This document shows positions 1,573 through 36,919 of a stretch of DNA of 38,731 nucleotides, piece after piece. The stretch comes from an uncultured virus (IMG/VR IMGVR_UViG_3300020048_000022) (Duplodnaviria > Heunggongvirae > Uroviricota > Caudoviricetes). The notes under the pieces are model-generated. The model made no database searches. It was not told the DNA's origin and worked only from the letters and a program-made list of their open reading frames with translations. Position 1 is the first letter of the stretch. Every line of letters starts with the position of its first letter. Both the position numbers and the translations under genes were made by a program. The stretch lies in the IMG/VR virus record IMGVR_UViG_3300020048_000022, one strand, 5' to 3'.

Positions 1573-1585
1573 GTTCTATATATTC
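1573..1585 (-). promoter_or_regulatory. Putative late promoter or 5'-leader motif GAATATATAGAAC
   Basis: Fills the 14-nt intergenic gap and abuts the ATG. An identical 13-mer lies at 27466-27478. Confidence 0.55.
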
Positions 1586-10961: not shown

Positions 10962-10964
10962 TTA

Positions 10965-13900
10965 TTAAATAGTTTTCTTACTTTGTGAATAAGCTGGAGA
11001 AACTAATGAAGTTTTAGTATAGCTTCCAGTTACAAGAACATCAAGAGAAAATAAATCCTCGTTCTTTACTTGTATATCTATTCCTATCTTCTTACTGTAT
11101 GTAATATTTTTAAGATTACCAGCAGTTCTCCATCCCCCAATAAATCCTAATTTATCTTGAGCTCTCATTTGAAAAATCAGTGGAACTGTTATTGAATTCT
11201 CTTGTCCAAACTCTAATGTCTTTTTAGCTAATTGTGTTGACCCTTCTATTTGTATTGCAGTGTGTGATGTTGGTCCTAAAAATAAATAAGATCCACAAGA
11301 GTACTTACCACATAGGAACTCGTCAGAATCTAAGAATCCTAATTTATTAGGATAAGCATTATCATCAATACCAAATACTGATCCTGAATTAGCTCCGTAA
11401 TATTCTAATTGTTGTGTGGAAAGACTTTGAGAACTTGCGGGAATTGAAGAAGTTATATTGGTATCTACCTCAAATCCTAAAGCATGTCTAAATGACGGAT
11501 AAGTCATATTTCCTGGGCCAGTTACAATGGGTCTTTCTAAATCAACAAAAGAATTTGCCGATCCGTCGTTAATATCGGGATGTGAAATATGTACACAGAA
11601 TTCATTCAAATTACCATTTCCGTCAGGTATTGGTAAAGTTGTATAATTACCATCCCAAATGTTTACATTAGCAGAACCTAAAGGAGTTGTAGCTGGATCA
11701 AACGGCATAAGTATGCCATCACTATTTATAGGTAATCCAGTAGTTCCTGTATTAATATTCCAAGATGGTAAATTTGGTGGGGTGAAGTATAAATCCTCAT
11801 CTAATCCCACACTCTTATATCTAGTATAAACAAATTGAGAATAAGCATTAGCACTTTGATATCCTGATGCTTGTATAAATGCACCAGGGGTAGGTGTTGT
11901 TCCGACTATAACATTAGCGGAGTTAATACCTGATAGTTGTATTGGTGTTTCTCCGTATTTTCTGTTGTTGTTATAATCGCTCTGTCCGCTTATTGTAATA
12001 GGAGCTTTAACCCCTTGTCCTCCTGGTATTAAAGAGGAAAGTTCTAAAGGAGTAGCAGCTTCATTTCTTAATTCTAGATAATAAATAACTGTTGCAATTT
12101 TACCTTTATTACTAGGATTTGAAAGATCTATTAATTGATCGTAATATCCAGCAAATAAATTAACAGTGCTACCAGGATTTATTTTATTAGAAGTACCACC
12201 ACTTCTTATATAAACTCCCAAAGTTCCTTTTGCTTTAGCAATAAGAGCTCTTAATGATTGTAATTCATTGTCTATTTGAGTTAACTTTTGAAATAGATCT
12301 AAAGCTTTACCTCCTCCATCAAAGAATCCAGATGCAATAGAATTGGAATTGTGTGCATAAAATTTATCACCGGAAGTAAATTGAGTGGATAAATGTTGAT
12401 CTAATCCTTTAGCTTGTAAATCTGCTTGTACTTTAACTACAGCCTGATCCATGCTGTTCTGTGCTACGAAAGATCCATTGTCTATCGATACAACCAAATT
12501 AGCAGGGAATTCCACTATAGCAGAAGTTGACCAATCAGAGGTCAAAGGATTAGTAGGCCAACCAGCTTCAGATATAGATTGAACTTGTATTTCAACCTTC
12601 TCACCCTTGGTTATAGCAATATCTAATTGATTTATATTTACTGTATTAGCATCGCTAACATCTTCAATTTGCCAAACATATGTTCCAGTATTAGAATCAT
12701 ATACTTTCTTTCTTAAATCGCTTGTAAACTGTGTCCAATTTGTAAATTGTCCTGTCTTTTGCACTCCGTTATTGTCTACGTAGTCGATCTGAGTTGTGCC
12801 ATTAGAATTTCCCGTTAATGAAAGGTATCTATATCTTACATTAAATTGAACAATATTCTGTTCTCCAGTTTTAGAATCAATAATTGGCTCAGGTATAGGC
12901 CAAAATCCTCTAACTCTATATTTAGGTGCTTCCGTTAATTCAGGGGTTGCAATAGTTAGATTATTAATTTCAGTGATTGTGGTAGCTAATAAATCCGTTC
13001 TACTTGCTTTATCCTTAGCTAATGAAGTGATCTTATCGTTTAATTTCTTGTATTCTGCAGTAGGTGTTTTCCCTGTAGATGTTGTTGTTAACTCAGAAAG
13101 TTGTTTTCTTGTCTGGTCTATTGCTCTGTCTATTGAACCCACTTCATTTTTCAAGGAAGTCTTAATCTTAATCTTATCTTTAAAATCTACACTTTCTTTA
13201 GAATCAGTTATCTGTGAATTAACTTTAACTACCTTAAAGTTTCCGGGAGAAACTACAGGTGCAGAAGGGGTTTGTCCATAAACTGCAGGAATAACATTCT
13301 CTTTAGCAGAAGATATAAAGATCTTACTAAAATCTGAAACCTGTGAAGTATAGAATTCAGATAATGTCTTAACACCATCGGAGGTGTTTATTTGTAGCTC
13401 ATTAGATAAGAAACAAATACCAGGACTATATTTACTAGATGCAACATTAAAATCTCCATCAATAGATTTAATAAAAATAGCTTGTCTCTCATCAAATCCC
13501 ACATTAATATCTACAGTTCTATTAGATAGAACATTAGAGTAAATTGTAAGGGAGTTATTACCTATTTGTATAGCATCAAATCCAAATAGTCTTTTTAGAA
13601 CTATAGTTTGGTTTGTAGTGTCTATTGATGTTATTTCGTATTTAGTTCCTCCTGATGTTATTAAAGTGTCGCCTTTTGTTAAAGTCCTAGAATCAGTTGA
13701 GGTTGCTAATGTATCTGTGTATCTTAATGTGTTTAACTTATACTTTCTAACAGTATTAGTTGATGTGATACCATTTTCAGTTACTTGTGTTTCTTCGTCA
13801 AATATTCTAAGAACTCCAAAAGATCCAATATATCTTATTGTTCTTAATTCTAATTCATTTATTTGCTCATCGGTAAAGTATTGAATTCCTTGGCTTTTTA

Positions 13901-17691: not shown

Positions 17692-18366
17692 ATGACTACA
17701 GGAAGCAATTGGACACAAAAAAGGAAACCTAAAAATCCTATTAAATTTAAAATCAATCTAAATGAAGAACAGAAAGAAGCTAAAGCAATCATTTTAGCAA
17801 ATCCTGTTAGTGTTCTTAAAGGAGCAGCAGGATCAGGTAAAACGTTATTAGCAGTACAAATAGCTCTGGATATGTTATTTAATAGGGAGATTGAAAAACT
17901 AGTTATTACTAGACCCACAGTAGCAAAAGAAGATATAGGATTTCTTCCTGGCGATTTAAAAGAAAAAATGGATCCTTGGTTAGCTCCTATATACGCTAAT
18001 CTAGAAATGGTCTATGATAAAACTAAAATTGAAAAATTACTTAGCGAAGGAATTATTGAAATCCTACCATTTCCTTTTATGAGAGGTAGAACTTTAGTTA
18101 ATTCTTGTGTGATTGTAGATGAAGCACAAAACGTAACAATGAGTCAAATGGAAATGGTTCTAGGAAGACTTGGAATTGGTTCTAAAATGATAATATGTGG
18201 AGACACATCTCAGATAGATTTAAAGAATAAGAAAGACTCAGGATTAGATTTCATGAATACACTTGCTGCAAGAGTTGAAGGTGTTAATGTGATAACTCTT
18301 AAGAAAAATCACAGACATCCTATTGTACCTGCAATGTTAGATGTTTACCGTGAATATACTACATGA
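17692..18366 (+). CDS. phoH: PhoH-family ATPase
   Basis: Walker A GAAGSGKT, ITRP, IGFLPGDL, FMRGRT, Walker B IVDEAQN, GDTSQIDL and RHPIV: the full PhoH motif set. Confidence 0.97.
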   Translation: MTTGSNWTQKRKPKNPIKFKINLNEEQKEAKAIILANPVSVLKGAAGSGKTLLAVQIALDMLFNREIEKLVITRPTVAKEDIGFLPGDLKEKMDPWLAPIYANLEMVYDKTKIEKLLSEGIIEILPFPFMRGRTLVNSCVIVDEAQNVTMSQMEMVLGRLGIGSKMIICGDTSQIDLKNKKDSGLDFMNTLAARVEGVNVITLKKNHRHPIVPAMLDVYREYTT

Positions 18367-25390: not shown

Positions 25391-27088
25391 TTAGTTTCCT
25401 GTATTTAGTGAGCTTTTTAATATGCTATTTACTCTAGTATTATAAGTTACTGGTACAATAGATCTAATATCTATATTTACAGATGATAAAGAACTCATAC
25501 CAGCTCCATAGTCGTAATAGATACCATTTCTATCTTCCCATCCGCCGGATATAACTACAATCTCATCTTTACCCATAACAATATCTCCAAATTCATCAAA
25601 TCCTATATCAGGGGAATTTGGACTTTGTAATTTAGCTGCTTCGTTAGATTCACCTACGAAATAAAGGGAAACCGAATCCACTCCTGAAATAGATTCAATC
25701 GCTGCAATCAAATCGGATCTAGGTATTTTATCTCTTCTTCTTATGTTAAGGAAGTAATCACTTAGAATACTAGTTATTTGACTTTTTATTGTATCAGGGT
25801 CATTACCTTCGAATATAGTTAAAGCAATATTCACAACATACTTAGTAAGAACCGGATCTAATATTTTTACAACAGTAGTAACTATTTTCTGTCCGCTCTC
25901 ATCTAATAATTGATAAATTCTATCTCTTTGCGCATTAGTTAATTTGAATCTAGAAAGAGGAATATCAAAATATGTTTCGTTACTTTTTAATGTGAGCTGA
26001 ATGTCGGGAACAAGAATTAAATAAATAATATTATCGTCATCTAAGTATTGATCATCAAAAGTAGTAAATGCTTCTATTATCGAAAACTGTCCAAATTTTT
26101 CAAAGAATGTTATATAATTTGTAGGATTGGCTAAAACAAAACTTCTAGATGTTTTAGGTGCAATAAGTCTTGTTAAATCTATAGGCTCTTGACTGGCACC
26201 TAATTGTGGAGCTATCGTACAATTAACCTGTAGAACTTCGCTTAGTGTTACGCTTCTTCCAAATATATCAGTTCCGTCGGAATCAAATTTAAAAAGAGCT
26301 TGTGATGAATCATCAAGTAATAAATTACCGTCTGCTCCAGAGCATTCTAAATAGTCAACTTCTATTATTGCTCCTGAAGGAGGAGGAAATCCAAAATCAA
26401 CAGTACCAAAGAAAACATCTATACCAGATATTAAAGAGCTTTTTACCATATAGCCTCTTGCATTTCTTGGTATATCATATAGAGAATCGTATTTCTTCCA
26501 TGTATTACCGTTTACCCTAACATCAACTTCAAAATTTTCTATTCCTGATGTACCTCTTGCTGATATATTATAGCTTTGTAATTTTCCACCAGTCCCTGTA
26601 TACTGATTAGTATTTAATACGCCTTCTATTACTGAAGCAGATAAAGTTGATGCTCCGTCAAGATTTAGCCTAACATATTCTTGCCCTAATTTAAGAAGGT
26701 ATGTTTTACCATTATTTATACATTTTACTTGTGAATTATTAGGTATAAGTACTGCTCCACCTCCGATATCTTCTAGACCTTTACCGTTCCATTTTGTTAC
26801 GATCTCACCTTTTGCTGCTATAGATCTTGTCGGGTTATGTCCTGCTAATGCTGCCAATCCGTATATAGAAGATTCTCTTGTTGCAGTATTTATATTAAGC
26901 TCAGTGATTGAATCTTCAATAAAGAATAATATAAATTGTGATAAGTTATCTAATACGAATATTATCTGTCCCCAAACAGAAGCAACAGTAAATAACTGTT
27001 CAGACATTCCATATCTTGCTTGTATTAAATCAAAAGTTTGAGATAATAAATCTGATATCTTGGCTTTGTTTTTATTTAATAAATCCAT
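25391..27088 (-). CDS. Baseplate wedge subunit, T4 gp6/baseplate-J-like
   Basis: ELNINTATRESSIYGLAALAGHNPTRSIAAKG, VFFGTVDFGFPPPSGAIIEVDYLECSGADGN and RSDLIAAIESISGVDSV match gp6-like patterns. Follows the gp25-like gene. Confidence 0.85.
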   Translation of the reverse strand: MDLLNKNKAKISDLLSQTFDLIQARYGMSEQLFTVASVWGQIIFVLDNLSQFILFFIEDSITELNINTATRESSIYGLAALAGHNPTRSIAAKGEIVTKWNGKGLEDIGGGAVLIPNNSQVKCINNGKTYLLKLGQEYVRLNLDGASTLSASVIEGVLNTNQYTGTGGKLQSYNISARGTSGIENFEVDVRVNGNTWKKYDSLYDIPRNARGYMVKSSLISGIDVFFGTVDFGFPPPSGAIIEVDYLECSGADGNLLLDDSSQALFKFDSDGTDIFGRSVTLSEVLQVNCTIAPQLGASQEPIDLTRLIAPKTSRSFVLANPTNYITFFEKFGQFSIIEAFTTFDDQYLDDDNIIYLILVPDIQLTLKSNETYFDIPLSRFKLTNAQRDRIYQLLDESGQKIVTTVVKILDPVLTKYVVNIALTIFEGNDPDTIKSQITSILSDYFLNIRRRDKIPRSDLIAAIESISGVDSVSLYFVGESNEAAKLQSPNSPDIGFDEFGDIVMGKDEIVVISGGWEDRNGIYYDYGAGMSSLSSVNIDIRSIVPVTYNTRVNSILKSSLNTGN

Positions 27089-27089
27089 A

Positions 27090-27461
27090 TTATATTATTT
27101 TAATTCCCAATATAGGGTTACCTTTTATAGCAAAATCAATAACACAAGCATCTCTAGTCTCACCCTTAAAGAATCCAACATTAAAGTCAACATTATATTT
27201 ACTTGATGCTAACGGAACATATGTTATTAAATGTAATCTTATTGCTCTTTCTAGAGTTGTCTGATCCACATTAAAGTCAAATAATAAACCCTCTAAGTCT
27301 ATACCAAAAAAAGGATCCCCTAGAACTTCTCCGGGAGTAGTTAACATACACTGCTTAATCATACCGATTAGTATTTCTACTTCATCGTCAGTATGTAATA
27401 ATCCTTCTTTGTATCTAGGATCATCTGGTGTTCTAGGATAAATTTCTGAGAATCTTGCCAT
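27090..27461 (-). CDS. Baseplate wedge/sheath initiator, T4 gp25-like (GPW/gp25 family)
   Basis: IKQCMLTTPGEVLGDPFFGIDLEGLLFD signature, 123 aa. Confidence 0.9.
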   Translation of the reverse strand: MARFSEIYPRTPDDPRYKEGLLHTDDEVEILIGMIKQCMLTTPGEVLGDPFFGIDLEGLLFDFNVDQTTLERAIRLHLITYVPLASSKYNVDFNVGFFKGETRDACVIDFAIKGNPILGIKII

Positions 27462-27465
27462 CTTA

Positions 27466-27478
27466 GTTCTATATATTC
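27466..27478 (-). promoter_or_regulatory. Putative late promoter or 5'-leader motif GAATATATAGAAC
   Basis: Identical to 1573-1585 and 4 nt upstream of the gp25-like ATG. Confidence 0.55.
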
Positions 27479-27509: not shown

Positions 27510-28289
27510 TTAGTTCCACTGCAAGAAGTATGAAGGAGTGTTTTCGTCTTTGATCATTTGCATGATCTCAGCTTTTTCTGTAGTTCCTAAAGTTTGTATA
27601 TTATTATAGTTAACTCTAACACCTCCTGGTAAATTATATTCGAAAGTACCTAATAGTCTACCAATATTAATTTTAGCTTCAGCAAGACAAAATCTTACAA
27701 ATAGTTCGTCATCATAAAGATCTTCTTCTGGTATTGCAATATAACCTCTAACCCCAACATCAGTACCAGAAAATAAAGTGGATGAACTTCCTCCATCAGT
27801 TGCTCCTGATCTATTAGGATCTCTACCGTTAATTGTTAGTTTTTTAGTATTCTTGTTAAAGTTAAAAGCGTAGGTTTCTAATAAATAAGCTTTAGCTAAA
27901 TCAAAGAATGAATAAAGTACAGTACGATAAACCAAGTTATCTCCAGCAAATGGTGATAGCATAAGCTCGGATCCTAATAATTTAGAATCTCCAAAATCTT
28001 TATCAGGTGTACCTGTAAGACCCGATCCACCAACTTCTCTAACATCATATACAGATACCACACAAGATGGTAATTGGATCTGTCTTGTTGCTCTAAAAGC
28101 AGCAGCAGAGAATAAGTCTTTTCCTAATACAAATATTCTATCTTCTACTGCATATTGATAATTATCATAAAAATAAGCTCTAGCTCTTTTTATAATTCTT
28201 TTTATTTCCTGGTCATTTAAGTTGTATGGTAATGCACAAGAATGAGATATATCATCTCTAATTTCCTGAATTAAGTCTGCTTCCGTCAT
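27510..28289 (-). CDS. Neck/head-tail adaptor protein, T4 gp13-like
   Basis: C-terminal FVRFCLAEAKINIGRLLGTFEYNLPGGVRVN...EKAEI parallels the gp13 LPGGV region. Helical N-terminus LNDQEIKRIIKRA. Confidence 0.8.
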   Translation of the reverse strand: MTEADLIQEIRDDISHSCALPYNLNDQEIKRIIKRARAYFYDNYQYAVEDRIFVLGKDLFSAAAFRATRQIQLPSCVVSVYDVREVGGSGLTGTPDKDFGDSKLLGSELMLSPFAGDNLVYRTVLYSFFDLAKAYLLETYAFNFNKNTKKLTINGRDPNRSGATDGGSSSTLFSGTDVGVRGYIAIPEEDLYDDELFVRFCLAEAKINIGRLLGTFEYNLPGGVRVNYNNIQTLGTTEKAEIMQMIKDENTPSYFLQWN

Positions 28290-28294
28290 TTTAA

Positions 28295-29737
28295 TTAGTT
28301 ATTTGATTCGAAGTTAGTACCAGGAATTCCTGATGGCTTACTGTTATTAATACTAAATCTAACAGGTTTAGATAACGTTTCACCGTCATTTCGATTAGGG
28401 AATCCTTTCTTCTTGGAGCTTCCTTTCATTTTCTTATCATCCTCTGCATCTTTAACTATTTCAGTATCTGGAGAAATAGTAGCAAGTTTTCCAATATAGC
28501 CTGATCTAATTATACCACCAAATACTTCACAATTGATTTCTTTTTCTTTATTATCTATATAAGTTTCATGTACTACATTACTAAACATAATATCCGAATA
28601 CATGATCTTAGATCTCTTAATTTCATTATTAGTAATCAAATCACAATCTTCAATCGCACAGTCGTTAAGATCACACGAAAACAGTCTACAGTCTAATATA
28701 TTTCCAGAGATTTCACTATTAAGAATGTCATAATCTTTAAGAAGATAAGCTCTAGTAGTTTTCACATCTTTTAATTGAAATTTACCTAATGAGCTATCAT
28801 AATTAATCATACCTTCTTTAATACCATTCTCTACGATAATATCATAAAGAATCTCTCTGATAGTCAAGAAAAATGTTCTAACTATCTGGGGATCAGATTT
28901 AAGATCGACCATTATGTTTAAGTGTGGATAATTCTTTTGGAAAGTATCAGGATCTATAAACGTAGCTGAATTTTTATAGATCTCTCCTAAAAACATTTTA
29001 AGTATCTTTAAATCGTTATCAGAGAATGAATTATTAAACTTAAGTGTCTGTACAGTATAAGTTATTATATAGTCTATAATCTCTTTTATTGATGAGTACT
29101 TCTTTTGGTAGTCTTTACCTCCAAGATATCTTACCTCAAAATATCCATCGGGTAATTTAGTCATATTTATACCCATATTTTTTTCTACGGGTACTTCGAA
29201 AAGATTCTTATCGATAAATGAAATGTTTGATGGATCTACAAACTTATTAGCAGGTAATATTCTTTTGATTGATTTAGCATATAAAGAACCCGCTCTCTCA
29301 GGAAATCTTTTATAAATAACATTCTCATCAAATCCTAAAATAAATTTAAGGGGGTTTAGTTGAGATACCGGAGGAACCTCAGGGAATATAGAAGTATCAA
29401 CACTTACTCCAAATTGAAATGCACATTTCTTATCTGTGTAACCATTTAGATCAATCCATCTAAGGGTCTTTATAAGAATTGCTATAGCCTCAAAATAAGG
29501 AAGAGGACCCGTGATGAATTCTGTCATCTTGGATCCTCCTGAGTAATCTGGTTCTAATTTAAAAATATCCTTGGTCGGTTTAAAACCTGAATGATACTTA
29601 CTAAATAGAAGTATTTTTTTGCCTAAAGTTTTTCCTAAGGAATCCGCTATCTCATTTCTATTTAAGTTACTAAAGAACTCAAATTCAAACCCTAATTTAG
29701 CTGAGTAGAAAAAATCATTAGAAAGTAAATTAGCCAA
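28295..29737 (-). CDS. Putative amidoligase (COOH-NH2 ligase, Amidoligase_2-like) with a C-terminal beta-helix-like repeat; TTG start
   Basis: GFEFE, EPDYSG, EFITGP, TDKKCAFQFG and FEVRYLGG motifs in the family order. 5-residue periodic tail ILDCR-LFSCD-LNDCA-IEDCD. Confidence 0.65.
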   Translation of the reverse strand: MANLLSNDFFYSAKLGFEFEFFSNLNRNEIADSLGKTLGKKILLFSKYHSGFKPTKDIFKLEPDYSGGSKMTEFITGPLPYFEAIAILIKTLRWIDLNGYTDKKCAFQFGVSVDTSIFPEVPPVSQLNPLKFILGFDENVIYKRFPERAGSLYAKSIKRILPANKFVDPSNISFIDKNLFEVPVEKNMGINMTKLPDGYFEVRYLGGKDYQKKYSSIKEIIDYIITYTVQTLKFNNSFSDNDLKILKMFLGEIYKNSATFIDPDTFQKNYPHLNIMVDLKSDPQIVRTFFLTIREILYDIIVENGIKEGMINYDSSLGKFQLKDVKTTRAYLLKDYDILNSEISGNILDCRLFSCDLNDCAIEDCDLITNNEIKRSKIMYSDIMFSNVVHETYIDNKEKEINCEVFGGIIRSGYIGKLATISPDTEIVKDAEDDKKMKGSSKKKGFPNRNDGETLSKPVRFSINNSKPSGIPGTNFESNN

Positions 29738-29740
29738 TTT

Positions 29741-30850
29741 TTATACTTCTGTTAATTGTATTTTGAGAGTAGACGTGTCTACGCTCGAGATTGAACAATT
29801 AACCAATTGGCCAACCTCATAGTTGTTAATAGAGTTTACCAATTTTTCTTTTTCAATAAGTCCAGATAATCCATTTTCAAGTTTAATGAACACACCGAAT
29901 GTCTTTAATTTAGTAATCTCTGCTTTATATATTTTCAATTCGGTATTTTCCCCTAAAACTTCAGCAGAAGAATCTTTTAAATTTTGGATGTTCTTTAACT
30001 TCTCATTTGGTTCTAAAATAGAAAGACCGATTCTTTGTGCATTTTTGATATCTACAACGTAGAATTCGACAGAATCACCAGTTTGTAAAGTTTCTAATTT
30101 TGTTCTATTATTTTCATCAATTGAAATAATACCAGTGTAAATCTCTTCCCACTCAACAAAAATGTTATTTCCTGAAACTCCAGTGACTTTACCTTCATAT
30201 CTTTGAGAGAATGAAAGATTTTTAACCTCAGAGTCAATAATTTTCTTAAGATATTTCTTAAACGAAACAACGAAAATATCTCTCTTCTGATCATAGATCT
30301 CAATCATGACAGTAAGTTCCTTTCCTACATAATCAGCAAAGTTCATGATTCGATTTGCAGCTGCTAAACTTCCAGGTAAGAAACATTCGATTCCAGAAAG
30401 ATCCACCATGAACCCACCGTTACAAACATTCTTAACTCTCACTTTAAATGCGCAATCTTCATCTTTGATAGATCTATGCAATTCTCTTTTTAAAGCTTTC
30501 TCGTATCCAGCAGATACCGATCCATTAAATGCTCCAGAAGCATCTTTATGAATAACAACATCTAAAACCTGTCCGCTTGTTATCTCTATTGCAGGATATC
30601 CAAGCTTTCTCATATGCTTTTCTTCCTTCTTAGTATCAATGATAATAGTCTGGCCAAAAGCAGTTTCGCCTAATGCTAATCCTTTTTCGCCGTCGTATCC
30701 AGTAACAACTATTCTTTCTGAACTATTCTCTACTAAATCTTTACCTGACATCTTCGTGTCGGTCTCAGGGAAAGTTCCTGAATAAAGATCTTCTAATCTT
30801 TCTCTTTCGTTTGTTTCGTATTCGAAACAGCTAAAATTTTTATTTTTCAT
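29741..30850 (-). CDS. rpsA: Phage-encoded ribosomal protein S1 (bS1) homologue, about 4 S1 domains
   Basis: VKNVCNGGFMVDLSGIECFLPGSLAAANRIMNFADYVGKELTVMIEIYDQKRDIFVVS matches bS1 domain 2. Further S1 folds YEGKVTGVSGNNIFVE and ITKLKTFGVFIKLENGLSGLI. Confidence 0.85.
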   Translation of the reverse strand: MKNKNFSCFEYETNERERLEDLYSGTFPETDTKMSGKDLVENSSERIVVTGYDGEKGLALGETAFGQTIIIDTKKEEKHMRKLGYPAIEITSGQVLDVVIHKDASGAFNGSVSAGYEKALKRELHRSIKDEDCAFKVRVKNVCNGGFMVDLSGIECFLPGSLAAANRIMNFADYVGKELTVMIEIYDQKRDIFVVSFKKYLKKIIDSEVKNLSFSQRYEGKVTGVSGNNIFVEWEEIYTGIISIDENNRTKLETLQTGDSVEFYVVDIKNAQRIGLSILEPNEKLKNIQNLKDSSAEVLGENTELKIYKAEITKLKTFGVFIKLENGLSGLIEKEKLVNSINNYEVGQLVNCSISSVDTSTLKIQLTEV

Positions 30851-30906: not shown

Positions 30907-33900
30907 TCAATATTTTTTTCCCCCGAAAGCTTTCTTGAGTTCCGATGGTAATTCGGGTATAGGATAAACAGGATCTCCTGCTCCTAAAAAGAATTTAAAA
31001 AGACCCGATACATCGGCAGCACTTCTTAAAAATTCATCTATATAAACCACATAGTAAACATTCTTTAGGCTCATTCTTCTCCATACAGGATGATCATCTG
31101 ACATAGCTAAAGGATTTATAATATTAACAACATTTCTTCCTAACAATACTGCTAAAGGCCAAGGTATCTTAGATAATATATTAGATGCTACTTCTATTGT
31201 TGGTAAAGTTATTTTATCAGATAGAGGGGTTTTAGGAAGGGATTTGAAGTATTTCCAAAATAAGCTATAAACTATTCTAGCTGGCGGAGGTGCTCCCATT
31301 CCTATTAATGCTTGCTCTACCATATCTGTTGGTCTTGCTAAAGGTAAAATAGGAATTTTAGCTATACTTAAGAAATCAGGTATATTTGGTGAATTGGGAT
31401 CTACAACATCCCTAACCATATTCCTTACTATCTTTTGTATATCAGATGGCTCAAGATTTATAAATTTAGAGGATTCTGGATCATTTATCTCAGGTATCAT
31501 TTTCTCTAATAATCCGTTATCTAATAAAGTTCCTATAGATTTTTTTATAAATGTTTTAATTACACCCCCTGGTATTGTCACTTGTACGATACCCCCAAGA
31601 CCAGGTATTTGTGCAACTTGATCCTGCTTCGGGGGGAAAACAGTGGGAAGTTCAAAAGCGGATATTGCATTACCAAATCCTCCGTTTAAAGCTTCAAGAC
31701 AGCATAAGGGTCCTTCGGGATGAGGAAATTTAGATATTAAAGGTTCCTCCCTGTCTAAAGGTCTTTCAGGATCAAATGCTCCTCTTCTACTTAATCCTAA
31801 TTTTTTAGCTACTAATTTTTTTAAATCCTTAACTCTTATTATTAATACAGGATCCTCACCTTCGTATCTCACATATTTAGCAAAATCCTCTCTCGTATAT
31901 TCAGCTTTTACCATACCCTCCATCAATCTAAGGTAAATGGCTTCTATTATAGGATTTTTTAATTTTATAAACTTTAATGCCTTAGGTGCTGAGTTAGTTA
32001 GCTTTATAGGAGGGAATAAGAAATTACCTTGATAATCACATTCCTCTATTATAGAAAAAGATCCTTTTCTCATTTTTTTAACAACAGAGAATTTATTTCC
32101 TCTTAATATTATGTTGGTAATAACTACTGCTGTTGACTTAATCTCTTTTACTAAATTTGAGAATTCGTCCCGATCCATTAATCTAGGGTCTTTCTTAATT
32201 CTAAGAAATATCTTATTAATATTCGAAACGTCTCTATTTTCAAAGAAGTATTGAGGTGGACATATAATTTTCATAAGCTTGAGAACCTCTCGCATTTCAT
32301 CTTTGAAATTTATATAGCCTCCACATTTTATAGGAACAAAGTTGGCTTTCATCTCTTTAAGAATTCTTAAAGATTTAACAATTCCAGGAATATCTATTTT
32401 AAGTTTATCTTTGTCCTTGGGAAAGTATATTGATTTAGGATTTGGTATGCCTTTATCTAAATAATCATTAATAAGAGTTTTAAGTACATCCTTTCTTTGT
32501 CTGACTATAGCTTTTAATTCCTCATCCTCATCTAGAAAATTAGGAGTAGGAAGATCTAATAAAGCAGCTTTTTTCTCATACTCTTTTTTCTTTTCTCTCC
32601 TCTTCTCTTTAACGTCTTTTTCTTTCTGTTGTAAATTTCTAAGAGCTTGTGTATCACCGGGAGGTGGTACGTTATCAAGAATCTTAGTTAAGTTTGCTTG
32701 AATATCACTAAGAATTCTGTCTGGTGAATCTAAGTTATCGTTACCAAATCCTGGAAAAGGAATTAGCTTATCTGGAATACCAAAAGTAAGAGCTTGCTTA
32801 ATCTTCTCTAAAGGATCTTTTAATTGCGGATCTGACTTTCTAGGTATAAATCTAGGTCCTCTTATTCCAGTAAGAAATAAAGAACTACCCGTTATAAATT
32901 CTTTTAAATAAACTAAAGGTGTAGGCATAAATCCACCAATTAAAGGAATGAATATAACCAGAATACCCAGATTTAATGGCAGTGGAATAACTATAGGTGG
33001 TATAGTAGTCCAAATCATAGGGAGAGGAATTCTTATATATGGCTGTCCATCTATAGGATTAGGAAATGGAATAGGTATAAAAGCTGGTGGAAGATATCCA
33101 ACTGGCCAATATTTTAATCCCAATCTAACACTAGGTCCAGCTGCTAAGAAATAGGCTGGATCCTCTATCGGGGGTAAACCATTAGGGTATGGTAAAAGTC
33201 CAACTTTAGTAATATCTTTACAAAATTGTTTCCACCAGCACTTCTGAAACATAGTCGGGCAATCAGAACTTGGAGGTGAAGACATTAAATAATTAGATGA
33301 TTTAAAATCCGATCCCGCAGGTCCGCAACATACAGGAGGACAGTTCTCTGGGTCATCAGCATCGTTGCTACCACCTCCTGCGCATTTAACATCAGAGAAG
33401 CTTTTACCTACGCTATCGGGAGTTAAACTCTTTTCAATTTCCGCGCTTTTTTGTGCTACGTATAATATAGTGTCCTGTATTTGTTCATATTTCTGTTTGA
33501 CGTCAAAATAATTTTCAAATATTCTAACTCCTATAACATCTCCAGTAGGTAAAGTTTTACCTAATCCCTCCCCGGCTTTTCTTGCTTCAGTCTTTAGATC
33601 TTCTATAAAAGGATCAATATATTGTTTTTTGCTTGCTTGATATTTAGCATCCCATTTGGGTTTAAAGTTTCCCCAGAAATCAGTAAAAGCTTGATTTGGT
33701 TCTCCCTCCTCGGTGAAACTAGAAGGTCTAACTTTTGAAGGATCCCTAGAGTCGTTATCTCCTCTTTCTTCTTGTGAGAAGAATAGCCAAGGCGAAGCAG
33801 ATTTTTCTATAAGCTGTCCATAAAGAATTCCTCTATCTTTTACTATCTTTTGTATAATATCAGATTTTGAATCATTCTTTTTTATGATAGTCTCTATAAA

Positions 33901-36006
33901 GTCATAAAATTTAGCAACATCAGGGGTTCCTGTTTTAAGATTGTTGATCTTAATGAATTGATAACTTTTTAAATACGAAGGCGTAGTATCTTTTAATAAT
34001 CCGCCATTTCCTGCATATTCGTTTCCTATTTTTATTTTTTCACCATCGGTCTCATTAACTTCTTCCAGAGGATCTTTGCTTGAATTTTGAAAAGATATAC
34101 CAGCTGGCTTTTTAACTTTCTTGTAAGGAAGTGGTGAACCATAATCGCTCATGAAAGAGAGATCAAATTGCAATTCACCTATTTTTTTATTGAATTCTAC
34201 TTTATTAAATCTGACAGAAAAATCTTTTATTTTTTTAATAAACTCGTATCCATAAGAATCGTAAGTATTATCAGTAGCAACATTAAATAAAGGACTTTTA
34301 AAAACCCTTTCACTAATATCTAGATTAGTCTCACCTTGTTGATAAACATCACTTGCGGTGGTAGTACTAGGAATAAAAGCGTTTTCTAAATCTGAATAAT
34401 TTACTCTTTTATTAAGTTTGGTACCTAAAGAATCTACTGTAGAATTTCTTAATGCTATTGATTGATCCTTATCTATATTAAGGCTTTCTATAAAATTCTT
34501 CTGTATTAATATAGCTCTAATAGTATCAACATTTGATTCGAAAGATGTAACACCATCTGCTACCGGCCAAGATTGATTATCACTGTTATATGTTATTGGG
34601 GATTTGCTAGCTTCTATTTGGTAATTAAATAAAGCGGTTAATTCATCATTAGTTAATTCAGTATCAGGAATTGTTAGAAGAAAAAGATCATTAGTAAATA
34701 TTGAATTATTCTCAATAAATAAAGCCTTATCATTATTATATTTTTCTTGCTGGTCTTTAATCAGCTTCTCTAATTCTATTGATTGGTCATTGTACGTCAG
34801 TACACTTATAGCAAGATCCAAATTACTAGGATCTCCGCCTTCGTTAACAGGTATTCTATTTTTCCAATTTTCAGATAATGATTTTTGATACTCGTATATT
34901 ATTTCATAATGATAGTATATCTCTTCTAGACTTTTTTCTATCATTTGCCATCTAGCTAATAATTTACTGTCGTCTTCTATTTTTTTAGATTTCGTTAATG
35001 CAGAATCTATACATGCTTCAATAGCATCAACATCTACTGGTGCTGGCTCTGGATCAGTTTCGTCTGGATTATTATCAGAAAAATCATAGGCAGGAGGATC
35101 ACAAAAATCTTCAGTCACATCATTAAATGTTTCTTTAGTTACTATAGGATCTCCTGTAATAGGATCTTCAGGAACTCCAGGTAAACAATCTTCATCAACT
35201 ATTGGATCGTCACCATCAGGAAAGAAATTAGAGTCATAGTCATCTATTCTATCTGATTTTGTATTCTCGTCAATGTCTTCAAAATCGCAAGGTTTTGAAT
35301 TGATGTTCTGTTTATTTAGAATATCATTAATCTTATCTAGAGCTTTACTTATACTTTGTTCTTCTCCTCCTATCTTAACATGAACTACTTTTTTACCAGA
35401 CATTATGAATTCTAATGGGATTTTAAACCCAAGAACATTCATGTCTCTTTTTTTTCTAGATCCTGAATTTGATGGCTTGCCAAGAATTAATGGATCTAGA
35501 TTATCAAAGATCTTCTCGTTTACATTTTCTAAAAATTTTGAATCTTTATTTTTTAAGAAACCAGTTATACCTCTTGATGGTATTTTGAAATCGTACTTAA
35601 AAGAGGTAGAATTCTTTACTGTTATTCCGAGATCTTTCTCTGTTATTGCTGAATTGTTTTTAAATTCATCAGAGGCTATTAATTCATTATATAATTTTGG
35701 ATTTTGTTTTTTTAAAGATTCAAGTAATATAACGCTATATAAATCATCCCCTTCATAATTACAAGCCAATTCTTCTATCCTTTTCATAGGAATAGGAGGC
35801 TTTTGTGGTTCTAAGCTTGCTAGTATATTCGCTACTTCCTTTTCGCTTTTTTCTAATTCTTTATTAAACCCTTCATCAGATTGAAGATCTTCATAAGGAC
35901 CATTTATTCCTTCTCCTCCAGTTATAATACTTACTATTTCTTCAGTAGTAGTTTTTTCAAAATCCTTACCTAGGAGTTTATCAATTCTTTCCTCTATATT
36001 TGACAT
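30907..36006 (-). CDS. Large hypothetical protein (1699 aa) with a central Cys-rich and Pro-rich hydrophobic segment; probably virion-associated
   Basis: Starts 1 nt after the gp5-like stop. Acidic N-half, basic C-half. Contains CPPVCCGP and IPIPFPNP...IPPIVIPLPLNLGILVIFIPLIGGFMP. Confidence 0.7.
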   Translation of the reverse strand: MSNIEERIDKLLGKDFEKTTTEEIVSIITGGEGINGPYEDLQSDEGFNKELEKSEKEVANILASLEPQKPPIPMKRIEELACNYEGDDLYSVILLESLKKQNPKLYNELIASDEFKNNSAITEKDLGITVKNSTSFKYDFKIPSRGITGFLKNKDSKFLENVNEKIFDNLDPLILGKPSNSGSRKKRDMNVLGFKIPLEFIMSGKKVVHVKIGGEEQSISKALDKINDILNKQNINSKPCDFEDIDENTKSDRIDDYDSNFFPDGDDPIVDEDCLPGVPEDPITGDPIVTKETFNDVTEDFCDPPAYDFSDNNPDETDPEPAPVDVDAIEACIDSALTKSKKIEDDSKLLARWQMIEKSLEEIYYHYEIIYEYQKSLSENWKNRIPVNEGGDPSNLDLAISVLTYNDQSIELEKLIKDQQEKYNNDKALFIENNSIFTNDLFLLTIPDTELTNDELTALFNYQIEASKSPITYNSDNQSWPVADGVTSFESNVDTIRAILIQKNFIESLNIDKDQSIALRNSTVDSLGTKLNKRVNYSDLENAFIPSTTTASDVYQQGETNLDISERVFKSPLFNVATDNTYDSYGYEFIKKIKDFSVRFNKVEFNKKIGELQFDLSFMSDYGSPLPYKKVKKPAGISFQNSSKDPLEEVNETDGEKIKIGNEYAGNGGLLKDTTPSYLKSYQFIKINNLKTGTPDVAKFYDFIETIIKKNDSKSDIIQKIVKDRGILYGQLIEKSASPWLFFSQEERGDNDSRDPSKVRPSSFTEEGEPNQAFTDFWGNFKPKWDAKYQASKKQYIDPFIEDLKTEARKAGEGLGKTLPTGDVIGVRIFENYFDVKQKYEQIQDTILYVAQKSAEIEKSLTPDSVGKSFSDVKCAGGGSNDADDPENCPPVCCGPAGSDFKSSNYLMSSPPSSDCPTMFQKCWWKQFCKDITKVGLLPYPNGLPPIEDPAYFLAAGPSVRLGLKYWPVGYLPPAFIPIPFPNPIDGQPYIRIPLPMIWTTIPPIVIPLPLNLGILVIFIPLIGGFMPTPLVYLKEFITGSSLFLTGIRGPRFIPRKSDPQLKDPLEKIKQALTFGIPDKLIPFPGFGNDNLDSPDRILSDIQANLTKILDNVPPPGDTQALRNLQQKEKDVKEKRREKKKEYEKKAALLDLPTPNFLDEDEELKAIVRQRKDVLKTLINDYLDKGIPNPKSIYFPKDKDKLKIDIPGIVKSLRILKEMKANFVPIKCGGYINFKDEMREVLKLMKIICPPQYFFENRDVSNINKIFLRIKKDPRLMDRDEFSNLVKEIKSTAVVITNIILRGNKFSVVKKMRKGSFSIIEECDYQGNFLFPPIKLTNSAPKALKFIKLKNPIIEAIYLRLMEGMVKAEYTREDFAKYVRYEGEDPVLIIRVKDLKKLVAKKLGLSRRGAFDPERPLDREEPLISKFPHPEGPLCCLEALNGGFGNAISAFELPTVFPPKQDQVAQIPGLGGIVQVTIPGGVIKTFIKKSIGTLLDNGLLEKMIPEINDPESSKFINLEPSDIQKIVRNMVRDVVDPNSPNIPDFLSIAKIPILPLARPTDMVEQALIGMGAPPPARIVYSLFWKYFKSLPKTPLSDKITLPTIEVASNILSKIPWPLAVLLGRNVVNIINPLAMSDDHPVWRRMSLKNVYYVVYIDEFLRSAADVSGLFKFFLGAGDPVYPIPELPSELKKAFGGKKY

Positions 36007-36007
36007 A

Positions 36008-36919
36008 TTATCCTCCTGTAACTCCTATACCAGTAGCTCCAGTAGCTCCAGTAGCTCCATTAGCTCCCGTAGCTCCAGTAGCAGGTAATGATACAGGACT
36101 ATTATTTTGCGCTGGTGTAGTGGGAAGATCCGGTGTATTTTCTCTAGTAACTCTTACAGTTTGACTTGTAGCCAATTGTTCAAAACTAGTAGCTAAAGTT
36201 GAATTAACTCCTGGCGTAGCTGGCATTTTACTGTCTATTGATATAGCTAGTTTTTTTAAGAAGTCCCAAAGAGGCTCAGCGCATACAGCAGAAAAAACAG
36301 GTGAATGTCCTAAATTAGTTGTCTTACCGTCCATCCAAACTTCTTCTGATGAATGCTTAATTCTGGTAACTGCAGTATTCTCTATTTCTTGATCTGCATA
36401 TTTTGTTATTTTACCTCCTTTTAATTCTATAGAAGCAGTGTCATCCGCATGAGTTATTAAAATAGAATTGTCGTTTCTTATTATTATTTTAGAATCCTTC
36501 AAATCTATTACAAGTCCTTTCTCTACCGTATAGAACATCTTTAATCTTTCTATACCGTCATATATTACAGAATGAGCACCATCGTAACTAGCTCTTATTT
36601 CATCCACCAAATCTGGTGATAATTCTTGTACCGCTTTATATTCTGGGCTATAATAGTTTCCGTTATTAAATTGAACATGGACAACAGATCCTAATTTAGG
36701 TACAGACATTCTACCTGATCCACCTCCTAATCCATAACTCATTTCAAATCTTTGGTGTGACCAAGGAAGACTTGTATCTTCTATCTGATCAAATAATCCA
36801 AACACCCTTATCTTTGCTCTTCCTCTAAATTCAGGATCTTTATTATCGACCACTACACCAAGATAATGAGATATCTCAGTATTTGATCTTTCTAATTTTT
36901 CTCTGTCAACTAAGCTCAT
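36008..36919 (-). CDS. Baseplate central spike, gp5/VgrG-type N-terminal OB fold, with no lysozyme domain
   Basis: YLGVVVDNKDPEFRGRAKIRVFG...LPW...SVPKLGSVVHVQFNNGNYYSPEY followed by short beta-strand repeats. Confidence 0.88.
   Translation of the reverse strand: MSLVDREKLERSNTEISHYLGVVVDNKDPEFRGRAKIRVFGLFDQIEDTSLPWSHQRFEMSYGLGGGSGRMSVPKLGSVVHVQFNNGNYYSPEYKAVQELSPDLVDEIRASYDGAHSVIYDGIERLKMFYTVEKGLVIDLKDSKIIIRNDNSILITHADDTASIELKGGKITKYADQEIENTAVTRIKHSSEEVWMDGKTTNLGHSPVFSAVCAEPLWDFLKKLAISIDSKMPATPGVNSTLATSFEQLATSQTVRVTRENTPDLPTTPAQNNSPVSLPATGATGANGATGATGATGIGVTGG
36030..36083 (-). repeat. Six tandem 9-bp units (ccagtagct on +) encoding a GAT/GAN collagen-like tail of the spike
   Basis: ccagtagct x3, ccattagct, cccgtagct, ccagtagca; protein ATGATGANGATGATGATG. 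Confidence 0.9.

Follow-up and report, generated by a model that had tools for sequence, protein, structure and literature searches.

A 38,731-nucleotide stretch of DNA from an uncultured virus of the class Caudoviricetes (IMG/VR record IMGVR_UViG_3300020048_000022), referred to below as the window, carries two neighboring genes on its minus strand: one for a protein resembling ribosomal protein S1 (29741-30850; 369 amino acids (aa), ATG start) and one for an amidoligase-like protein, here called the ligase (28295-29737; 480 aa, TTG start), which was assigned through its homologues and a structure model. An earlier note, made from the letters of the window alone, had located both open reading frames (ORFs) correctly and had proposed that they form a two-component module that modifies the ribosome or other proteins. 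The analysis reported here favors a different reading, which we hold to be slightly better than an even bet. The two are separate accessory genes in a late baseplate-neck operon, and they are adjacent through inheritance; the S1 copy would aid initiation, the ligase would be an enzyme of the amidoligase type, and the translation of the two would be coupled. The operon would be that of a freshwater myophage of roughly 290 kb. For the two-component claim the main value of the analysis is negative, in that adjacency and in-frame spacing do not establish a ribosome-modifying system.

Conserved gene order around the S1-like and ligase genes

A search of IMG/VR with a ligase profile gave 270 relatives, from which the survey took the 80 best loci; two of these had no DNA upstream of the ligase, which left 78. 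The reciprocal search with the S1-like protein gave 171 relatives, of which the best 80 were likewise kept (190 and 91 relatives, respectively, were not taken in). In this sample the S1 gene was found directly upstream of the ligase gene on the same strand in 78 of 78 loci, and the ligase gene was found downstream of the S1 gene in 80 of 80. The gene order 588-aa protein, spike, 1699-aa protein, S1, ligase, gp13-like, gp25-like, and gp6-like was kept in every locus for the members that the search picked up; in L076 and L077 it did not pick up the 1699-aa protein. A gp13-like match followed the ligase match in all 80 kept loci, mostly at a distance of 4-70 nucleotides (nt) and at about 1.26 kb in L077. 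In the same loci, the S1-like and ligase proteins evolved faster than the gp13-like and gp25-like proteins (46-92% versus 60-94% identity). The adjacency of S1 and ligase is read here as inherited gene order; the six neighboring genes largely keep their order too.

Among GenBank phage records, the ligase was found in six huge-phage records only. In LR756500 the order S1 then ligase was retained, with two 127-aa ORFs on the opposite strand between them and a gp13-like homologue two genes downstream. The S1-ligase distance was about 48 kb in LR756504, about 206 kb in LR745206, about 252 kb in LR756502, and about 442 kb in both LR756501 and LR756503. The neighborhoods of distant ligase members were read in four of the huge-phage records and in L100; of two very distant family members traced for context, P0190 yielded a single locus and P0250 none. 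The ligase gene of LR745206 lay about 5 kb from homologues of the spike and 588-aa proteins, and that of LR756504 had homologues of the gp13-like and gp25-like proteins at 2-3 kb, in both cases without an S1 gene nearby. In LR756501 and L100 the ligase neighbors were replication-type genes, so not every member of the family is found with structural genes. The S1 homologues of LR745206 (363 aa), LR756504 (357 aa), and Lak-C1 (369 aa) were situated among genes for SSB, methyltransferase, Thg1, DnaB, and RNA ligase; in the Lak phages S1 was present and a ligase homologue was not detectable. Over deep divergence, the recurrent neighbors of the ligase are neck and baseplate genes, not S1.

RimK extends bS6 and PafA tags proteins. 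A functional module of a related kind, in which the ligase would covalently modify the phage S1 copy, the host bS1, or another ribosomal protein and coupled translation would set a fixed ratio of the two products, appears unlikely. That the ligase acts on S1 or the ribosome is possible, and only the adjacency of the genes speaks for it. An obligate two-gene unit is not supported by the relatives: in 21 of the 78 loci the genes are spaced apart (the spacers that were read are described below), and in five of the six huge-phage records they lie 48-442 kb apart. As grounds for giving up its proposal, the note had itself named a lack of linkage in related phages together with a lack of interaction or shared expression timing; linkage held in all 78 and all 80 IMG/VR loci and was absent in five of the six huge-phage records, which supplies part of those grounds.

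In LR756500, a 401-aa TnpB-like ORF with a Cas12f1-like TNB domain (4.5e-17) precedes the spike gene at a distance of two genes (L001:1457-2662). In two huge phages, endonuclease genes (homing/HNH) adjoin the ligase or its neck-gene neighbor (L098:11334-12119 and L099:14334-16124); the matches in L098/L099 were to phrog_12131 (2.2e-11) and phrog_3339 (2.4e-124). The endonucleases beside the ligase region fit a mosaic context in those two huge phages.

The S1/ligase junction

The minus strand reads GAA GTA TAA AAA TTG GCT across the junction, in which TAA-AAA-TTG (29735-29743) comprises the S1 stop codon, one further codon, and the TTG start of the ligase. From the S1 stop up to GFEFE (residues 16-20), this TTG is the sole start codon; no Met comes before the motif, in line with the remark of the earlier note that no ATG does. 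Because the sole start is a TTG located 3 nt after the S1 stop, the ligase is probably translated by termination-reinitiation, and the comparative data given below point to such coupling. The note had put in-frame spacing alone at a 1-in-3 chance; the tight in-frame junction is no more than expected by chance. Of the 15 same-strand junctions in the window, 8 are 6 nt or shorter, and the ligase gene is separated from the next gene, gp13-like, by 5 nt. The spacing of S1 and ligase is therefore typical of the operon and not specific to the pair, and several other tight junctions of the putative operon resemble it. The only other non-ATG start in the window is the GTG of a 1870-aa gene at 10961, which lies 3 nt past the upstream stop codon (TAA-TAA-GTG, 10961-10967); both non-ATG starts thus sit at tight junctions.

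Among the 78 loci, 57 had tight junctions, with gaps of 3 nt in 22 loci, 1 nt in 6, 2 nt in 1, 4 nt in 6, -14 nt in 17, and -23 nt in 5, and 21 had spaced junctions of 68-1650 nt. TTG was used at all of the tight junctions and at none of the others, and ATG was used at all of the spaced junctions and at none of the others. On the ligase tree, spacing and start codon changed together, with 7 changes each. The 3-nt gap and a weak start codon tied to juxtaposition are comparative evidence of the kind expected for a coupled pair. Translational coupling of S1 and ligase, which the earlier note had suggested, is accordingly a plausible feature of the window's lineage, judged from these codon patterns, although nothing in it is peculiar to this pair.

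In the seven spacers that were read, a terminator-like hairpin with a U-run is followed by GAATATATAG located 3-5 nt before the ATG. Five of the hairpins were folded; they have 11-15 bp and z values of -4.4 to -6.3, and 0 of 200 shuffled sequences were as stable. Such combinations of hairpin, U-run, and GAATATATAG occupy the junction in several lineages (L006:7816-7991, L037:7894-8000, L043:7232-7327, L046:7782-8000, and L050:7930-8003). The stems differ in sequence and keep their pairing, and the ligase tree requires at least 7 gains or losses. These junction elements have the look of regulatory cassettes that are mobile. A complete gene for a 420-aa S-adenosylmethionine synthetase, metK, stands between S1 and ligase in a close relative with a 92% identical ligase (L081:6478-7740; 8.3e-126 to solved MetK structures), and a 159-aa ORF was found in another spacer.

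Stop-codon readthrough or frameshifting that produces an S1-ligase fusion protein, also raised in the earlier note, is highly improbable. The two ORFs of the window are in frame with only TAA-AAA between them. However, the frame is kept in just 22 of the 57 tight junctions, the gaps of 1, 2, 4, -14, and -23 nt accounting for the other 35, and no fused relative was found in the length-restricted homologue searches. The best 120 "near" matches (264-840 aa) were at most 503 aa long, the best 150 of 1155 clusters were at most 498 aa, and among proteins of 841-2400 aa there were 0 matches, the last being weak evidence by the tool's own rating.

The S1-like protein

The S1 identity given in the earlier note was borne out. 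The protein matched Pfam S1 in three stretches (3.5e-18), rpsA (3e-24), and Escherichia coli bS1, the last at 4.4e-20 with the single sequence and at 1.2e-27 with profile A3, which was built from 25 S1-like relatives. In the profile alignment, residues 89-200 correspond to residues 59-171 of bS1, including the domain-2 signature GGF-V-L-GI--FLPGSL, and chain 9zcd_A is collinear with the protein (12-368 to 5-369). In the structure model (predicted local distance difference test (pLDDT) 82.4, predicted template modeling (pTM) score 0.56), an N-terminal helix (aa 13-26; 30773-30814) is followed by four S1/OB barrels, D1 (aa 44-111; 30518-30721), D2 (aa 134-196; 30263-30451), D3 (aa 217-277; 30020-30202), and D4 (aa 308-368; 29747-29929), all encoded on the minus strand. 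The modeled protein thus has four barrels where bS1 is defined by six. It follows from the profile alignment and the four-barrel model that the protein is a shortened bS1 homologue in which domains 1-4 are kept and domains 5-6 are gone; by the curated test discussed below it is not an rpsA orthologue.

Domains 1-2 are the ribosome-binding part of bS1. Docking on host 30S subunits, or the binding of leaders rich in A/U, is the most likely role of the S1-like protein, which would help initiation on the largely Shine-Dalgarno-less messages of the phage. With regard to 30S binding by way of uS2, the model shows the N-terminal helix. The protein shares tandem S1 domains collinear from the N-terminus, and the domain-2 signature, both with the "possible rpS1" of huge phages and with cellular bS1. 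With the huge phages it also has in common the length (357-369 aa in Lak and other huge-phage homologues) and the scarcity of Shine-Dalgarno sites. A location of the S1 gene in a baseplate-neck operon was seen only in the window's clade and in LR756500. It has been proposed since 2019-2020 that phage S1 copies redirect host ribosomes; to our knowledge, such copies have never been tested at the bench. The window's clade offers a compact four-domain version of a phage S1 that is abundant in lakes. In Al-Shayeb et al. 2020 (PMC7162821), few Shine-Dalgarno sites in huge phages are tied to a possible rpS1, with the idea that the phage's own S1 acts in initiation. Ribosomal proteins of phages are covered in PMC6375957.

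Sequence relationships of the ligase

The name "amidoligase" given in the earlier note stands through the homologues and the fold and could not have been reached from the window protein by itself, which matched 0 Pfam families and 0 PDB chains. Against PHROGs it matched only phrog_9890 (0.0068), against NCBIfam it gave a single chance-level match, and profile A1 gave only weak repeat matches in the PDB. A total of 618 homologues was found, none of them named, and the family comprises 1155 clusters at 50% identity, of which the best 150 contain proteins of 121-498 aa. PF12224 (Amidoligase_2) was detected in 22 of 34 close homologues (best 5.5e-5) and in 17 of 69 wider homologues (best 7.1e-14); Pentapeptide_4 was detected in 9 of the 34 and likewise in 17 of the 69. 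In full-length homologues, the PF12224 matches were always collinear from the N-terminus. Atlas clusters of the family carry PF12224 on 12-29% of their members, and the homologue in LR745206 matched phrog_2443, "amidoligase enzyme", at 2.8e-5. The homology of the ligase to PF12224 thus holds through intermediate sequences. A profile of the wider homologues also matched MfpA (8.3e-6) and a McbG-like protein (9.5e-5); the window protein itself had no direct pentapeptide-repeat match.

Phage proteins annotated as "amidoligase enzyme" (PF12224; phrog_2443) occur in Agrobacterium phage Atu_ph07, Pseudomonas phage tf, and Cellulophaga phage phi14:2. The ligase has in common with them a glutamine-synthetase-like fold, an N-terminal G-x-E-x-E strand, and later E and E-x-R strands. 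It differs from them in that it adds a beta-helix of the pentapeptide type along with further helices and a tail that is disordered, has no direct Pfam match, and is encoded in a structural operon without an adjacent gene for a glutamine amidotransferase (GATase) or a GGACT protein. In agreement with the earlier note, which saw neither kind of gene in the window, no GATase or GGACT family was found by Pfam in the 18 large ORFs of the window that were scanned. In five related contigs (149-248 kb, 51-86% complete by CheckV, each with one S1 gene), GATase_6 was present but distant (about 37 kb from the ligase in the 248-kb contig G002), and GGACT was present in one of the five. Pairs of amidoligase and GATase in other phages are mentioned in PMC10580990, and ligase operons in general in PMC4431377. 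In the jumbo-phage review PMC7824862, amidoligase appears solely in the reference list. In the papers found on amidoligases with a pentapeptide repeat or on Amidoligase_2/PF12224, the architecture of the ligase was not described; supplements, such as the tables of Al-Shayeb et al., which may list S1 genes, were outside the scope of this survey.

Judged from the predicted fold and these intermediate sequences, the ligase falls within the phage amidoligase group as a divergent member. Its family, which is large, unnamed, and found in big phages, combines an amidoligase fold with a beta-helix and recurs near neck or baseplate genes, and finding its substrate would give a function to a widespread "hypothetical" protein.

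Predicted fold and active-site-type residues of the ligase

The ligase was modeled with alignment A2 (pLDDT 89.4, pTM 0.85), residues 1-4 and 437-480 being disordered. The model comprises a glutamine-synthetase-like carboxylate-amine ligase domain (aa 5-255; 28973-29725, minus strand), a C-terminal beta-helix resembling pentapeptide repeats (aa 305-430; 28448-28825, minus strand), and a tail rich in Lys, Ser, Asn, and Pro (aa 437-480; 28298-28429, minus strand) that is predicted to be disordered, with pLDDT values under 50. N450 and F461 of the tail are invariant in 34 relatives. In Foldseek searches of the PDB, matches had probabilities of 0.98-1.0 with low TM-scores of 0.2-0.3. The best match in BFVD was a full-length uncharacterized phage protein (1.4e-41, TM-score 0.81), followed by many phage proteins named "Amidoligase enzyme" (3e-13 to 1e-5, probability 1.0). 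The predicted model and the fold searches thus place a glutamine-synthetase-like catalytic fold in the ligase. Compared with glutamine synthetase, gamma-glutamylcysteine ligase (YbdK), and PafA-Dop, the full ligase model had 10-13% identity and TM-scores of 0.2-0.3. Residues from about 300 to 430 fell on beta-helices in the fold search, the type of helix being ambiguous; the repeat pattern at residues ~313-394 and the predicted beta-helix may relate the protein to the pentapeptide-repeat proteins MfpA, McbG/AlbG, and Qnr.

The ligase domain contains the residue set E18, E20, H49, E62, E73, Q108, E138, R148, E201, and R203, all of which were invariant in 34 of 34 close relatives, these being linked to S1 (Q108 is taken up again below). 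E18, E20, E62, E73, E201, and R203 sit on predicted strands, and these six acidic/basic positions were kept in 40 of 69 wider relatives and in four of five further homologues (those of the four huge-phage records and L100), LR756500 being among those that keep them and the copy of LR756504 having L at position 62. E18, E20, E62, E73, Q108, E201, and R203 would be the counterparts of the metal and ATP ligands of glutamine synthetase. The ligase is probably active. With a glutamine-synthetase-like fold, an intact acidic/basic set, and a fused beta-helix with a basic tail, the ligase most likely catalyzes formation of an ATP-dependent amide bond on some acceptor, as far as the model can indicate. 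An analogy, and no more than that, can be drawn with RimK and bS6, an ATP-dependent amide ligase that acts on a protein of the small ribosomal subunit; RimK is an ATP-grasp enzyme and its fold is other than that of the ligase.

Two other roles were considered for this protein. The ligase might be a virion- or assembly-linked protein-tagging enzyme that is held on the neck or baseplate by its beta-helix and basic tail and joins amide bonds to structural proteins or to the S1 copy translated with it; we regard this as unlikely. If it were true, phages would have in this enzyme an equivalent of protein ligation of the Pup or RimK type, with a tie to the assembly of particles or to the takeover of translation. 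That the protein is a pseudoenzyme, with a structural or assembly role in the neck or baseplate and no catalysis, also seems unlikely. Its repeated occurrence in distant phages next to genes of the gp13-like, gp25-like, or spike kind agrees with such a role, as do the 29 of 69 wider relatives that lack part of the acidic/basic set and are yet full length, the Gln found in place of His108 in the clade, and the positions most conserved across the family (T101, E138, Y204, G206, G207, Y210, and N312), which lie mostly outside the acidic/basic set. On the other hand, the constancy of the six acidic/basic residues in close relatives and most further homologues argues for catalysis, the apparent losses at 22-29% identity may be alignment errors, and the ligase, like S1, evolves faster than the gp13-like and gp25-like proteins.

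Initiation signals and expression

The exact 10-mer GAATATATAG, seen ahead of the ligase gene in the spaced relatives, has two copies in the window, both on the coding strand: one at 27469-27478 (minus strand), 8 nt before the gp25-like start, and one at 1576-1585 (minus strand), 4 nt before a start codon. In related loci, 37 of 38 distinct contexts of the motif were on the gene strand, and each of these 37 was followed, after 3-7 nt, by the ATG of an ORF of at least 60 aa. The motif occupies the usual place of a Shine-Dalgarno site, and a Shine-Dalgarno-like core was read by eye in only 2 of 16 upstream regions of the window. GAATATATAG could be a late promoter that gives near-leaderless messages, or an A/U-rich initiation element.

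It is improbable that both proteins are virion-borne cargo that travels with the DNA, by packaging or ejection, and serves at the very start of infection to prime translation and to modify some target in the host. Both genes do lie inside the late structural block, between the spike and 1699-aa genes and the neck genes, and the ligase gene of the spaced relatives has the same start-proximal motif as the gp25-like gene. Injected enzymes encoded in tail modules exist, an example being the RNA polymerase fused to the tape measure of P23-45 (bioRxiv 10.1101/2022.12.01.518664). However, the S1 homologues of other huge phages are found among replication and RNA genes, and late expression by itself is no sign of packaging.

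Evidence that weighs against the favored reading

Several results count against the reading of two separate accessory genes with coupled translation, and are collected here. The linkage of S1 and ligase is perfect across S1 identities down to 46%, and extends to LR756500 at 29%, which would be equally expected of a functional pair. With regard to coupling, independent pairs on well-supported branches of the ligase tree agreed in 4 of 4 cases, which speaks in its favor, but the sign test gives a nonsignificant p of 0.125, and the TTG/ATG pattern could also arise from an inserted cassette that brings its own ATG. Two lake metatranscriptome libraries from two studies contain small parts of the window, and in each of them one RNA contig bridges the S1/ligase junction, at 29608-29848 and 29547-29779; this is a weak hint in favor of the reading, but contigs cannot prove a single transcript, DNA may be present in both libraries, and parts of the window not covered carry no meaning. 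The S1-like protein scored 85.4 bits against the rpsA equivalog TIGR00717, far under its cut-off of 577 bits.

As for the ligase, no Pfam family matched the window protein at E<=1, and it remained below the PF12224 gathering score of 22 bits. In a re-scan of 12 close homologues, 9 matched PF12224 at 16-22.5 bits and one of these reached the 22-bit cut-off; because close homologues score in this range, the missing match of the window protein reflects a limit of sensitivity. At position 108, the 34 close relatives all have Gln, in contrast to the expected His found in 36 of the 69 wider ones. The acidic set is missing, or misaligned, in about 20 distant members of the family, and catalysis is therefore not guaranteed.

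Layout of the window

The earlier note had described the two genes as lying in an otherwise structural run. Their neighbors are indeed structural (spike, gp6-like, gp25-like, and gp13-like), but the run is not purely so, because a PhoH-like gene, the sole large plus-strand gene (17692-18366; Pfam 4.3e-64), interrupts it. Upstream of the pair lies a block on the minus strand with the gene for the 588-aa protein, the gene for a baseplate spike/hub OB-domain protein (36008-36919; Phage_base_V 2.8e-5, phrog_430 1.1e-13), and, directly upstream of the S1-like gene, that for the 1699-aa protein (30907-36006), which is syntenic in nearly all relatives. The 1699-aa protein had no match in PHROGs, Pfam, or NCBIfam. 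It contains a long Pro-rich hydrophobic stretch and evolves fast, its identity among relatives being 34-75%; a role in ejection or as a tape measure is conceivable.

Downstream of the ligase gene, also on the minus strand, is the gene for the 259-aa gp13-like neck protein (27510-28289). This protein matched the head-tail adaptor phrog_211 (1.4e-6) and Atlas clusters in which PF26809 (Phage_T4_gp13) is found on 93% of the members (score 0.98), and it gave only chance-level matches in the PDB. The gp25-like sheath-initiator gene (27090-27461) was assigned from two weak matches (phrog_261, 0.0019; PDB 8kea_V "sheath initiator", 0.011), and the gp6-like baseplate wedge gene (25391-27088) from phrog_219 (3.4e-25).

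At least 60% of the sampled words of the window were present in 18 DNA runs of lake or other aquatic origin, which came from 17 studies. In the "Moraphage" paper (PMC12619734), gp13, gp25, gp6, and PhoH are core genes of a large aquatic lineage; the terms "ribosomal protein" and "amidoligase" occur 0 times in the portion of that paper available. The interval between the gp13-like and gp25-like genes, which is 48 nt in the window, has inserts of up to ~2.4 kb in relatives (L055: 10225 to 12605) and is a second insertion hot spot of the block.

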